From Escherichia coli (lineage in GTDB: Bacteria > Pseudomonadota > Gammaproteobacteria > Enterobacterales > Enterobacteriaceae), in the NCBI RefSeq assembly GCF_003790525.1, contig NZ_CP033635.1: DNA of 64,000 nt; one strand, written 5' to 3'. Both the position numbers and the translations under genes were made by a program. The notes under the pieces are model-generated. The model did no database searches and was not told where the DNA came from. It saw nothing but the letters and a program-made list of their open reading frames with translations. Shown piece by piece: positions 11,096 to 13,364 of the stretch (its first letter is position 1; the number at the start of each line of letters is the position of its first letter).

Positions 11096-11740
11096 TTAAC
11101 GAACCGTCCATGCAGGGCTGAAATCCTCTTCCTGAAACAGCTCTGTCAGCCCGCTAATCTGTTTCAGCCTCAGCACTTCATCCTGGTCCATGCCCAACTC
11201 TGTGCCAATACGCTCATCTGTCCAGCCCAGACGTGAGAGGTCCCTGACAATGTCAGACATTGACGTTACCTGGTGTTTTCCCCTGGCACGGTTATGCCGT
11301 ATGGTTGCGGCAATACGTGATGCCTGTCCCTTTCTCTCTGGATTAATACAGGCCACTGGCAGCCAGCCCTTCAGACGTTTTCTCGTATCCGCTTTCCTGC
11401 CCAGCAACTGACGATGAAAACCATCCACGACCAGATAATGCTCCTTCTCTTCCGAAACCACCACAGGCTGCGTGAATCCATCCTGCTCCAGTGAATGTTT
11501 AAGCAGTTTTTTTTCACTGGAAGACATGACATTGGGATTGTAATCGTTGGCCACCACCTCATCCGCTTTCACCCACAACACACAATCCACAGGCTCCTGT
11601 GCAAAAGGGCTGACCTCATGCAACACCCTGCGCAGATGATTAAGGGCTCGTATGGTCTCTTCTTCAGATCGTTCCTGACTGAAGTACTGTCGAATCATGT
11701 TGCTCAATACTTCCACCTCAGGTGTCACAGAATCCCCCAT
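11096..11740 (-). CDS. ibrB: ParB-like nuclease domain protein, IbrB-like
   Basis: 214 aa; ...LVVDGFHRQLL... ParB/sulfiredoxin-type DGxHR motif; overlaps the 3' end of the upstream PAPS-reductase-like gene. Confidence 0.65.
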   Translation of the reverse strand: MGDSVTPEVEVLSNMIRQYFSQERSEEETIRALNHLRRVLHEVSPFAQEPVDCVLWVKADEVVANDYNPNVMSSSEKKLLKHSLEQDGFTQPVVVSEEKEHYLVVDGFHRQLLGRKADTRKRLKGWLPVACINPERKGQASRIAATIRHNRARGKHQVTSMSDIVRDLSRLGWTDERIGTELGMDQDEVLRLKQISGLTELFQEEDFSPAWTVR

Positions 11741-12951
11741 TCCTTCCTCCTTTCTTTCATACGCTGCAGATAACGTTCATAGTGCCGGGGTTTGTTCGGA
11801 CTGAAGGAGAGGGTCCGACACCAGAAATCATTCTTTATGAGTGTCTTACAGATACGTCGCCAGGACGGGATATCCCGGCTCCCCAGGTCATTCTCCTGTT
11901 CATCCGGGATGTCATCCGGGAAGCCCCGCGTCTGATACCAGCGCAGGTAGACAGCAATTTTATTACGGTAATGTTCTGCCGTTCTTTCCGGCATCACATC
12001 CAGCAGGAACATCGCATAGCTACGCCAGGTATGATGAGGTGGCTTCGTGATACGCTTACGCAGGGCAAAATAGGCACCGCTCTCATTGGCATAAAGCGCC
12101 CCGCTGGCAGCACCCGACACCCGCTCACACATCCTGGCCCAGGTTTCCGGCTCCAGAACATGGTAAAGCCACAGTCCCTTACGCTGTTCCGGGCCAAAAG
12201 GCTCACAGACCCGCATGTTGCGTAACGGCACGCCGGCACGGTACATCAGGTCATACAGGGGATTGTAGATAGCCCGGGTTCTGGCGTTATATATCCATAT
12301 ATCACGGGCTTTCCAGTCATACAACGGATACAAGGTGTAATAAAACCCTTCAGGTGACGCTGTGGTCCAGGGTTTATCATCTGCATATCTCAGTTTGCGC
12401 TGAGACACCAGTCCCATAAAGCGATTGAGCGATTCATCAGCACGAACACCAGTCAGTATTGCCACTCCACACCGGTTACCGGCAAACCAGGAAGAAAATG
12501 CCGGAACAAATTCTTCAAACGTCATGGCATACCGATAAAATGGGAAATACGACATATCTGTAATAGCGTCATCTGGTGGCTGACGAACCCACTCCACACC
12601 TGGTTCCCAGCATATCCATTCCGGCTGAAACTGAGAGACACCGTTTACCGTAGTCAGGGGGAGTGCCACCCAGTAAAAGGTATCCGTCACATCCCGGTAC
12701 ATTTCCCGCATCTTCTGAACATGTTCAATGGTGCACTGATACTGAGCTTCCCAGTCAATGAATAATACAGAGAAACGACGTTTCTTCCTGCGAGCCACAT
12801 CAGCCGCAAGATGGAGCAGCACAGTGGAGTCTTTTCCTCCGGAAAAAGACAAACAGACAGAAGAGAATGTTTCAAACAACCATTCAATACGGCGAATAGA
12901 AGAATGAAATACATCATCCTCTTTTATTATCTTTCGTATAGTTCCTGACAT
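11725..12951 (-). CDS. ibrA: PAPS reductase-like (ATP pyrophosphatase fold) protein, IbrA-like
   Basis: 408 aa; PP-loop motif SFSGGKDS near N-terminus; long C-terminal extension; AT-rich upstream region 12952..13330. Confidence 0.65.
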   Translation of the reverse strand: MSGTIRKIIKEDDVFHSSIRRIEWLFETFSSVCLSFSGGKDSTVLLHLAADVARRKKRRFSVLFIDWEAQYQCTIEHVQKMREMYRDVTDTFYWVALPLTTVNGVSQFQPEWICWEPGVEWVRQPPDDAITDMSYFPFYRYAMTFEEFVPAFSSWFAGNRCGVAILTGVRADESLNRFMGLVSQRKLRYADDKPWTTASPEGFYYTLYPLYDWKARDIWIYNARTRAIYNPLYDLMYRAGVPLRNMRVCEPFGPEQRKGLWLYHVLEPETWARMCERVSGAASGALYANESGAYFALRKRITKPPHHTWRSYAMFLLDVMPERTAEHYRNKIAVYLRWYQTRGFPDDIPDEQENDLGSRDIPSWRRICKTLIKNDFWCRTLSFSPNKPRHYERYLQRMKERRKEWGIL

Positions 12952-13364
12952 GTTGTATATAACAAAAATTAAAGAACTAATTAATATTTTGATTTATAAT
13001 AAATAAACGCTTTGAACGACAATGAAACTCTTTTGACTTAAAATTAGTTTGTATTTTTCTTAAAAATCAAACCTGTGTCAACGCTGCCCCAATAGATACC
13101 ACCAATTAAAACCATAGAAAAAACCACTAATACTCTTATTTATTACGGTTATTTAATCTATTGATTAAGGCTGAATTTAATATAATTTATTGCTGTGTTT
13201 TTACAAACATTTAGCATGATTGAACAAGTCATCCCGTTTTTTTCATGAAATGATTGATAGAAAGCTGAACAGTACAGAATGATGTATCAGGGGACTCGTC
13301 ATTTTTCCCAGCCTCAGAGTCTGTCTGAACGCTTTTACCACATTTTCTGTCTGCAGGGCTGCCG

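Follow-up and report, generated by a model that had tools for sequence, protein, structure and literature searches.

The ibrA and ibrB genes of Escherichia coli increase the expression of Eib adhesins (Sandt et al. 2002, as summarised in PMC7649339), and this activation is the only experimental phenotype on record for the pair. Their closest described relatives include the paralogues ybdN-ybdM of E. coli K-12 (b0602/b0601), which are repressed by the neighbouring LysR regulator CitR/YbdO (PMC9068703). Comparable folds are found in DNA-modification systems: the defining features of DndC are three cysteines that hold a 4Fe-4S centre and a cysteine dyad (PMC10853773), and DndB and DpdB are ParB-like partners of DNA-modifying enzymes (PMC10853773, PMC12839542). 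Here we describe an ibrAB pair in a 64,000-nt stretch of E. coli DNA, hereafter the window, which represents a chromosomal pathogenicity island. All positions are those of the window, to which the annotation of strain SFE8 was transferred by subtracting 9400 from the locus position. A reading of the window from its sequence alone had recognised IbrAB and called its biochemical function unsettled. The searchable literature indeed holds no biochemical study of IbrAB, and no mechanistic study of IbrA/IbrB, DUF3440 or YbdN/YbdM was found in it.

An intact copy of a known gene pair

The pair is already known and catalogued, and the copy in the window is an ordinary one. On identical sequence, RefSeq names the products 'phosphoadenosine phosphosulfate reductase' and 'IbrB-like domain-containing protein', and IbrA is 90% identical to the annotated IbrA of Escherichia phage PhiR5_2, which also encodes an annotated IbrB. 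The locus thus bears out its earlier identification, and it has the composition of the module: an IbrA with PAPS_reduct and DUF3440 regions, a co-oriented, overlapping IbrB downstream, and close identity to named proteins. The same PhiR5_2 identity and RefSeq name link it to the IbrAB of strain ECOR-9, with which it shares gene order and overlap. Nothing of substance sets the two apart, and here again the pair lies in a genomic island with remnants of insertion sequences (IS). The K-12 proteins YbdN and YbdM are 58% and 54% identical to IbrA and IbrB, respectively, and are encoded in the same order with an overlap. Whereas ybdNM is core-chromosomal and repressed by CitR/YbdO, ibrAB is borne by islands, plasmids and phages.

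The two overlapping open reading frames (ORFs) and their translated SFSGGKDS and DGFHR motifs are present as had been read from positions 11096-13330 (Table 1). Both genes are intact and overlap by 16 nt on the minus strand, with the ibrB ATG at 11740..11738 and the ibrA TGA at 11727..11725. A strong Shine-Dalgarno sequence, GGAGGAAGG, lies within the end of ibrA at 11750..11742, 2 nt 5' of the ibrB ATG. An overlapping or tightly abutting A-to-B junction is also found in most of 79 related loci, which are the best-scoring loci on one-genome-per-species contigs and not a random sample. Judged from dN/dS values of 0.05-0.23 against four E. coli and phage variants, both genes are under purifying selection. 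It is hardly credible that the pair is an inert passenger, left as a non-functional remnant in a decaying island: the IS elements around it are pseudogenised and a related strain has lost ibrA and carries a truncated ibrB, but the ORFs described here retain all family-invariant residues, the coupling junction is intact and the dN/dS range argues for selection. We conclude that the locus is an intact, selected ibrAB copy, and that ibrAB is a mobile two-gene module of phage and mobile-element origin.

The module is widely distributed. Its DNA was detected in 2149 of 5426 complete E. coli genomes (~40%), and IbrA was found on 867 PLSDB plasmids, among which are virulence plasmids of Klebsiella pneumoniae and megaplasmids of Ralstonia. 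A further 224 GenBank records of phages contain it. The sampled Shigella plasmid matches were short and partial (11-13% of the query), and represent remnants. On the K. pneumoniae virulence plasmid NZ_CP047676.1, ibrAB (~91% protein identity) lies between fecIRA and iroBCDN, so that on a hypervirulence-type Klebsiella plasmid and in the window alike the pair is accompanied by iron-uptake virulence loci.

Table 1. Features of the ibrAB locus and its surroundings in the window
Feature	Position	Strand	Basis and remarks
ibrB-like gene	11096..11740	-	214-aa ORF; ParB/Srx N-domain, C-terminal helix-turn-helix-like segment
LGMDQDEVLRLKQ, conserved helix-turn-helix-like IbrB segment	11159..11197	-	translation
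RHNRARG motif, IbrB residues 148-154	11279..11299	-	translation; second family-defining IbrB motif
DGFHR motif, IbrB residues 106-110	11411..11425	-	translation
Translational-coupling junction ibrA/ibrB	11725..11750	-	Shine-Dalgarno, ibrB ATG and ibrA stop
ibrA-like gene	11725..12951	-	408-aa ORF; PAPS_reduct N-domain, then DUF3440 helical C-terminal region; PP-loop ATP-pyrophosphatase type
PP-loop SFSGGKDS, IbrA residues 35-42	12826..12849	-	translation
AT-rich stretch kept between ibrA and IS3 fragment	12952..13218	-	upstream region
IS256-family transposase N-terminal remnant, 66 aa	10856..11056	-	58% identity over 50 aa, E 2e-16
IS3 transposase fragment and reverse-transcriptase fragment	13219..13452	-	RefSeq pseudogene annotation, identical stretch in strain SFE8
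YadA-like trimeric autotransporter adhesin gene	43731..45326 (..45272 from next ATG)	-	ORF; 'YadA-like family protein'

IbrA and IbrB beside related enzymes and ParB-like proteins

IbrA matched Pfam DUF3440 (8.2e-25), PAPS_reduct (1e-7 and 6e-7) and the PP-loop family (1e-4), and it matched PHROG 2302 (phosphoadenosine phosphosulfate (PAPS) reductase) end to end at 2.3e-83. IbrB likewise matched PHROG 2159 (ParB-like) end to end at 1.4e-87, and with such values the identification of both proteins is far beyond chance. An exhaustive search (E<=1e-3) placed IbrA in a family of 1856 clusters at 50% identity. In an alignment of 82 full-length homologues (22-58% identity, seven from phages), the PP-loop residues G39, K40 and S42 are invariant, as are D66, E68, D217 and Y233; S37, G38 and D41 of the PP-loop and R170, E173, S174, R177, P209, D212, W213 and R247 are conserved in at least 90%. 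This conservation indicates a nucleotide-binding and catalytic scaffold under strong constraint. Loss of the PP-loop residues, which had been named in advance as a finding that would refute the earlier reading, has not occurred: SFSGGKDS is intact here and is a family-wide invariant. The AlphaFold model of IbrA is confident (pLDDT 92.9, pTM 0.91), and the nearest solved folds are flavin adenine dinucleotide (FAD) synthase, CysD and adenosine phosphosulfate (APS)/PAPS reductase. Together with the Pfam and PHROG matches, this supports the PAPS-reductase-domain fold proposed earlier. IbrA is therefore an ATP-pyrophosphatase or adenylyl-transfer-type enzyme of the PAPS-reductase/FAD-synthetase/CysD branch of the adenine-nucleotide alpha-hydrolases.

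Within this branch IbrA stands apart. CysH has a conserved C-terminal catalytic cysteine of the ECGLH type. No invariant cysteine is found among the 82 IbrA homologues, and C249, which is roughly at the place of the CysH catalytic cysteine, occurs in only 35 of them. The best cysteine column (69/82, consensus YWxCLP) is alanine in this IbrA, at residue 96 (12664..12666), and also in K-12 YbdN; the enterobacterial branch may have altered its chemistry, or the residue may have a purely structural role. Compared with CysH, CysD and eukaryotic FAD synthetase, IbrA moreover adds the 170-residue DUF3440 extension, and its NCBIfam scores lie 5- to 10-fold under the curated cut-offs (34 bits against 154 for CysH, and 32 against 254). 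A function as PAPS reductase was ruled out by the missing conserved catalytic cysteine and the sub-cut-off CysH scores; as it lacks a conserved cysteine, IbrA is neither a PAPS reductase nor an Fe-S sulfur inserter of the DndC type. Seven long IbrA relatives (493-671 aa) proved not to be IbrA-IbrB fusions and to have no informative extra domain; the N-terminal extension of one of them, P0167, is unrelated to the acetyltransferase partner described below.

The sequence-only reading had ascribed a DndB/DndC-like architecture to the pair, and this held only at the level of shared superfamily folds. In DndC/DndB as in IbrA/IbrB, a PP-loop ATP pyrophosphatase of the PAPS-reductase branch is paired with a ParB/Srx protein that has a DGxHR-type motif. 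The Fe-S cysteines, the DndA, DndD and DndE neighbours and membership of the DndB and DndC profiles are absent. A phosphorothioation system of the Dnd or Ssp kind, in which IbrA would act like DndC and IbrB like DndB to insert sulfur into the DNA backbone, is thus barely conceivable. In its favour are the pairing of the same two superfamilies in DndBC, the PADLOC matches of the IbrA PP-loop region to DndC (weak, at 9e-4 and 16 bits, with no domain passing) and to BrxP (2.4e-7), and the fact that housekeeping IscS can stand in for DndA in known systems (PMC10853773). IbrA has the PP-loop of DndC but no conserved counterpart of the three Fe-S cysteines and the cysteine dyad that DndC needs, and it had no NCBIfam DndC match at E<=0.01. 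Moreover, ibrAB is flanked here by IS remnants, and DndA, DndD and DndE are found neither beside it nor in the 79 loci, while the DndD/DndE core was found in all Dnd systems analysed in PMC10853773. BrxP of type 4 BREX is the best PADLOC match to IbrA and, like SspD, belongs to the same superfamily branch, but the match covers residues 26-96 only, and BrxP has extra domains and a Cys-rich region. No partner genes of BREX (PglZ, BrxC, BrxL) or of the SspD systems are found near ibrAB.

IbrB matched Pfam ParB_N weakly (0.004). The profile of its family matched Noc, ParB and Spo0J chains at 3e-7 to 3e-4 in the box I-II region, which agrees with the ParB-like fold proposed for it, and matched SbnI and free serine kinase weakly. 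An alignment of 57 homologues revealed four common elements, namely NxYNPN, DGxHR, TIRHNRARGxH and a helix-turn-helix-like LGMDxDExLRLKQ. D106, G107 and R110 of DGFHR are invariant and H109 is at least 90% conserved; N150, R151, A152 and G154 of RHNRARG are invariant; and in the helix-turn-helix-like segment G183 and E188 are invariant, with M184, D187, R191, L192 and Q194 conserved in at least 90%. DGFHR stands where ParB-type proteins align, and we presume by analogy to ParB/Srx that DGxHR and RHNRARG form the nucleotide pocket. IbrB is thus a ParB/Srx-type protein with a helix-turn-helix-like segment.

IbrB shares the N-terminal fold of the partition proteins ParB and Noc, but its score against TIGR04285 was 22.6 bits for a cut-off of 315, and it has DGFHR, a motif of the Srx, DndB and SerK type, instead of the GERRxRA arginine patch of partition ParB. 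No ParA-like neighbour is present here or recurs in the 79 loci; parS sites were not searched for. ParB-like partners do recur in DNA-modification modules, as had been proposed: DndB and DpdB are such partners, and PHROG 498, a phage DNA methyltransferase with a ParB_N domain, matched IbrB at 2.6e-8. These phage ParB-methyltransferase fusions share ParB_N with IbrB, but ibrAB has no methyltransferase domain. Remote homology between IbrB and the DndB and DpdB models was not borne out in the NCBIfam and PADLOC searches: DndB, DGQHR, DpdB and SspE gave no match (PADLOC E<=0.1), and the only NCBIfam match was to Noc (5.5e-5). The resemblance to DGQHR-domain proteins is confined to the short DGFHR motif. 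The likeness to DpdA/DpdB is that of a ParB-like NTPase or loader helping a DNA-modifying enzyme, and SNF2 helicases of extended ibr loci score against DpdE models. On the other hand, DpdA, a tRNA-guanine transglycosylase (TGT), and DpdC are absent, IbrB does not match DpdB, and no TGT-like neighbour recurs.

Conserved neighbours and a possible mechanism

The IbrB gene adjoins that of IbrA in 79/79 genome loci, and in 77 it lies directly downstream on the same strand. These loci belong to Enterobacterales, Lentisphaerota, Armatimonadota, Bacteroidota, Verrucomicrobiota, Firmicutes, Alphaproteobacteria, Helicobacter and Asgard archaea. Among the best-scoring 80 viral contigs, 68 carry an IbrB-like gene, on either side of IbrA. 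The two genes are thus essentially never separated and are obligately coupled.

Two further genes accompany the pair in a part of the loci. A SNF2-like helicase of ~415 aa lies directly upstream in 17/79 genome loci and is present in 16/80 viral loci. It has intact Walker A (GxGKT) and DExx (DES) motifs, matches PHROG 62 at 1e-61 to 1e-93, and is nearest to ZorD, DpdE and DrmD among the PADLOC models; it is also encoded by Lactobacillus phage AQ113 and, split in two, by Streptococcus phage PY1. The second optional partner is a single family of GNAT acetyltransferases, which adjoins IbrA in 9 genome loci and ~6 viral loci in varying gene order: in Sphingomonas and Ralstonia (Pfam Acetyltransf_1 2.3e-5 for the latter) ibrA and ibrB enclose the GNAT gene, whereas eight Bacteroidota loci have it directly upstream of IbrA. 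The short contigs of two distant IbrA representatives contained one more GNAT neighbour. On viral contig L156 (IMGVR_UViG_3300045988_034771), helicase and GNAT are fused in a single 596-aa ORF (8233-10023) directly upstream of ibrA-ibrB, with the SNF2-like helicase at residues 7-451 and the GNAT at the C-terminal residues 461-545. As a Rosetta-stone fusion, it connects the two optional partners with the ibr module.

Such a layout of helicase and GNAT resembles that of TmcA/NAT10, and it could point to RNA, with IbrA modifying tRNA as a PP-loop enzyme like TilS or TtcA and the helicase-GNAT partner acting like TmcA. We hold this to be very improbable, as a ParB-family partner and a helicase of the SNF2 type, a dsDNA translocase, point to DNA instead. 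The remaining viral neighbours of ibrAB are mostly replication and recombination genes, encoding Sak4, RecE-like and other exonucleases, HNH endonucleases and a second helicase.

We tentatively prefer the reading that IbrAB is an ATP-dependent enzyme targeted to DNA by IbrB and acting on nucleic acid, with a change in gene expression as the outcome, although in our judgement this falls somewhat short of probable. IbrA and IbrB would form one machine, in which IbrB, once bound to or loaded onto DNA, would bring IbrA into position. By adenylyl transfer from ATP and release of pyrophosphate, IbrA would then activate a target in nucleic acid, most probably in DNA, and alter it covalently. In fuller modules, the SNF2-type translocase and the GNAT acyltransferase may serve to reach and acylate this target, and the minimal two-gene version of E. 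coli may alter the transcription of horizontally acquired genes, such as prophage eib adhesin genes. This reading is favoured by the conserved catalytic core and the fold of IbrA, its obligate pairing with IbrB, the helicase and GNAT partners, the replication and recombination genes around viral copies, the ParB_N domain of phage DNA methyltransferases, and the changes in adhesin expression in E. coli and Ralstonia.

Several observations weigh against this proposal. The nearest structural relatives of IbrA act on small molecules (flavin mononucleotide, sulfate, APS), and the DUF3440 C-terminal region (~170 residues) gave no structural match and no recognisable DNA-binding fold. The E. coli ibrAB has neither helicase nor GNAT, and the neighbourhood counts rest on a simple ORF caller. 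Neither a cysteine desulfurase, DndD/DndE, TGT, nuclease nor another reader recurs in the 79 genome loci; as no restriction or reader partner is found there, ibrAB is not a defence system of the restriction-modification kind. Linkage to methyltransferases was considered and set aside as anecdotal, with two annotated phages and one further case in 159 loci searched with three methyltransferase queries. Eib activation needs no covalent chemistry in principle, and we know of no IbrAB modification, substrate or complex that has been demonstrated anywhere.

The small-molecule relatives also allow a metabolic role, which we regard as improbable. In the manner of CysD and FAD synthetase, IbrA would transfer an adenylyl group to an oxyanion, with IbrB as a phosphotransferase of the Srx or serine-kinase type, and the resulting metabolite or signal would affect expression secondarily. 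The closest solved folds of IbrA and the weak matches of IbrB to SbnI and free serine kinase are consistent with such a role, as are the frequent annotation of phage copies as cysH-type auxiliary metabolic genes and the rise of the cys regulon together with ybdNM in a citR mutant (PMC9068703). Against a metabolite pathway speak the helix-turn-helix-like segment that IbrB has conserved, the presence of a helicase partner and the setting among replication genes; in addition, no sulfur-assimilation neighbours were found, and the IbrA scores are far under the curated CysH and CysD cut-offs.

Extending the preferred reading of a DNA-targeted enzyme, it is possible, though doubtful, that IbrAB represents the minimal core of a system by which phages and mobile elements modify nucleic acid independently of cysteine. 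If so, the fullest form of this system would consist of a SNF2 helicase-GNAT, a PP-loop enzyme and a ParB-like loader, and would produce an ATP-activated, adenylylation-dependent DNA mark, possibly acyl or amino. Such a mark would alter restriction sensitivity and transcription, including that of the trimeric autotransporter adhesins of E. coli and Ralstonia.

Two further ideas were not retained. Terminase genes adjoin the pair in phages Akoma, FCL-2, Taranis and Salgado, but this is not general, since TerL is usually 6-20 genes off in the 80 viral contigs. In Mycobacterium phage Akoma (L008:1-4474), the gene for the IbrB-like gp5 runs into the beginning of that for the large terminase, a small subunit is missing from the annotation, and gp1 is another ParB-like gene; a ParB-like protein of cluster-B mycobacteriophages might double as the DNA-recognition subunit for packaging. 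The toxin-antitoxin interpretation of a guilt-by-association catalogue was set aside because overexpression of YbdM costs only 10% growth.

Adhesin genes, regulation and the surrounding island

A second link between IbrAB and trimeric autotransporter adhesins, independent of E. coli Eib, is found in Ralstonia. On the R. solanacearum megaplasmid AP024106.1 (L177:5287-11280), an adhesin gene, ibrA, a gene for a 145-aa GNAT and ibrB follow one another on one strand. The adhesin matches SadA, BpaC and YadA chains at 3e-31 to 4e-14, and the IbrB is 51% identical to that of the window. According to a preprint, IbrAB, an N-acetyltransferase and the adhesin RadA are co-upregulated in planta in a Ralstonia rprR mutant. 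No trimeric autotransporter is found near ibrAB in the 79 genome loci, so that only Ralstonia and E. coli show the link.

The window itself contains an adhesin gene, which had been described as YadA/Eib-like. The ORF exists and is YadA-like, with a YadA anchor match at 2e-17; no Eib-named PDB chain was matched at E<=0.001, and the term 'Eib-like' is therefore justified only in the broad sense of a trimeric autotransporter. The adhesin has a duplicated internal segment of ~30 aa and a rare sequence, which forms a cluster of one. Downstream of it, at 43214..43669, lies a 151-aa 'sigma factor-like helix-turn-helix' gene, and the complete pair of sigma-like and YadA-like genes occurs in only 31/5426 genomes. 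Strain 702/18 has an adhesin gene of the same island family ~10 kb from a truncated ibrB, with ibrA deleted. In Nissle 1917 (L010:7999-14895), ibrAB is beside a PIG-L deacetylase/glycosyltransferase/acetyltransferase/YaiO cluster, and a cluster with the same four annotations is beside the sigma-like and YadA-like pair in strain GF124.3 (L178:8352-13684), so that in an ancestral island only a few kb may have separated ibrAB from the adhesin gene. For the window these data are indirect and suggestive of a shared history of adhesin and ibrAB, and of nothing more; that its YadA-like gene is a target of IbrAB-dependent regulation is possible.

The adhesin data also bear on the main alternative to a nucleic-acid-modifying enzyme, namely that the pair is purely a transcription co-activator. 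IbrB would be a ParB-family switch like VirB or KorB that counters silencing at AT-rich acquired promoters, and IbrA would merely be a nucleotide-handling accessory or sensor without covalent modification of nucleic acid. We consider this unlikely, but it accounts for much. Eib activation, as the sole experimental phenotype, fits it directly, as do the ParB N-domain and helix-turn-helix-like segment of IbrB and the adhesin operon of Ralstonia. Islands of Shiga toxin-producing E. coli (EDL933, L011:6984-9852, and O104:H21) carry ibrAB preceded by a large AAA-domain gene and followed by genes for a PerC-family regulator and a 214-aa hypothetical protein. The adjacency to a PerC-family regulator in enterohaemorrhagic E. 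coli islands favours a regulatory role, as does the joint induction of ibrB-perC-hyp on adherence to epithelial cells (PMC7649339). The K-12 ybdNM genes, moreover, are under a LysR repressor and adjoin an H-NS-regulated gene, and the region upstream of ibrAB in the window is AT-rich.

A conserved operator upstream of ibrAB was nevertheless dropped as a candidate. The 300 bp 5' of ibrA gave no alignment across five ibrAB variants, and 12952..13218 is not conserved; since these upstream regions are unalignable, there is no shared site, which speaks against co-activation. One promoter-like site, TTGACA-17-AAAAAT, lies upstream of ibrA at 13081..13053; it is only a candidate promoter because such sites are no more frequent than in shuffled sequence. 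Co-activation further fails to explain why the catalytic residues of IbrA are kept across phyla and in strictly lytic phages, where co-activation of prophage genes is meaningless, and the SNF2 helicase and GNAT partners point to polymer chemistry.

The surroundings of ibrAB in the window confirm that it is wedged between an IS256 remnant and a decayed nest of intron and IS fragments. The 66-aa remnant downstream is 58% identical to the N-terminus of the window's own IS256-family transposase ORF (41690..42850). On the other side, upstream of ibrA, the nest starts at 13219..13452; its RefSeq annotation comprises a decayed group II intron along with pieces of IS3, reverse-transcriptase and integrase genes. 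Within the nest lies a 413-aa group II intron reverse-transcriptase/maturase ORF (16063..17304), for which RefSeq treats the corresponding ltrA, interrupted by an internal stop, as a pseudogene. Strain SFE8 and ~30 other genomes match positions 10600..13600 with 100% identity. The window and SFE8 differ in the stretch 7585..10602, and SFE8 has an IS100 insertion. In the window this stretch holds a complete IS66-type element on the minus strand, with tnpA, tnpB and tnpC ORFs of 225, 115 and 523 aa. It is abutted by a plus-strand ORF (10330..10602) for the C-terminal 90 aa of a TnpC, indicating two IS66 copies in opposite orientation. The island further contains iha, sitABCD, sodC and iucABCD-iutA amid many dead IS elements.

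Phages that carry the ibrAB module infect Asgard archaea and bacteria of at least five phyla, and its products are routinely mislabelled as 'PAPS reductase' or 'partition protein'. Knowing the chemistry of IbrA would fix thousands of annotations, including the 'cysH' auxiliary metabolic gene calls in phages, would possibly reveal a new nucleic-acid modification, and would explain the activation of adhesin genes in pathogens that was observed in 2002. The new context provided here, a composition of helicase, GNAT, PP-loop enzyme and ParB-like protein, offers a concrete and testable hypothesis for a gene family that is a worthwhile problem.

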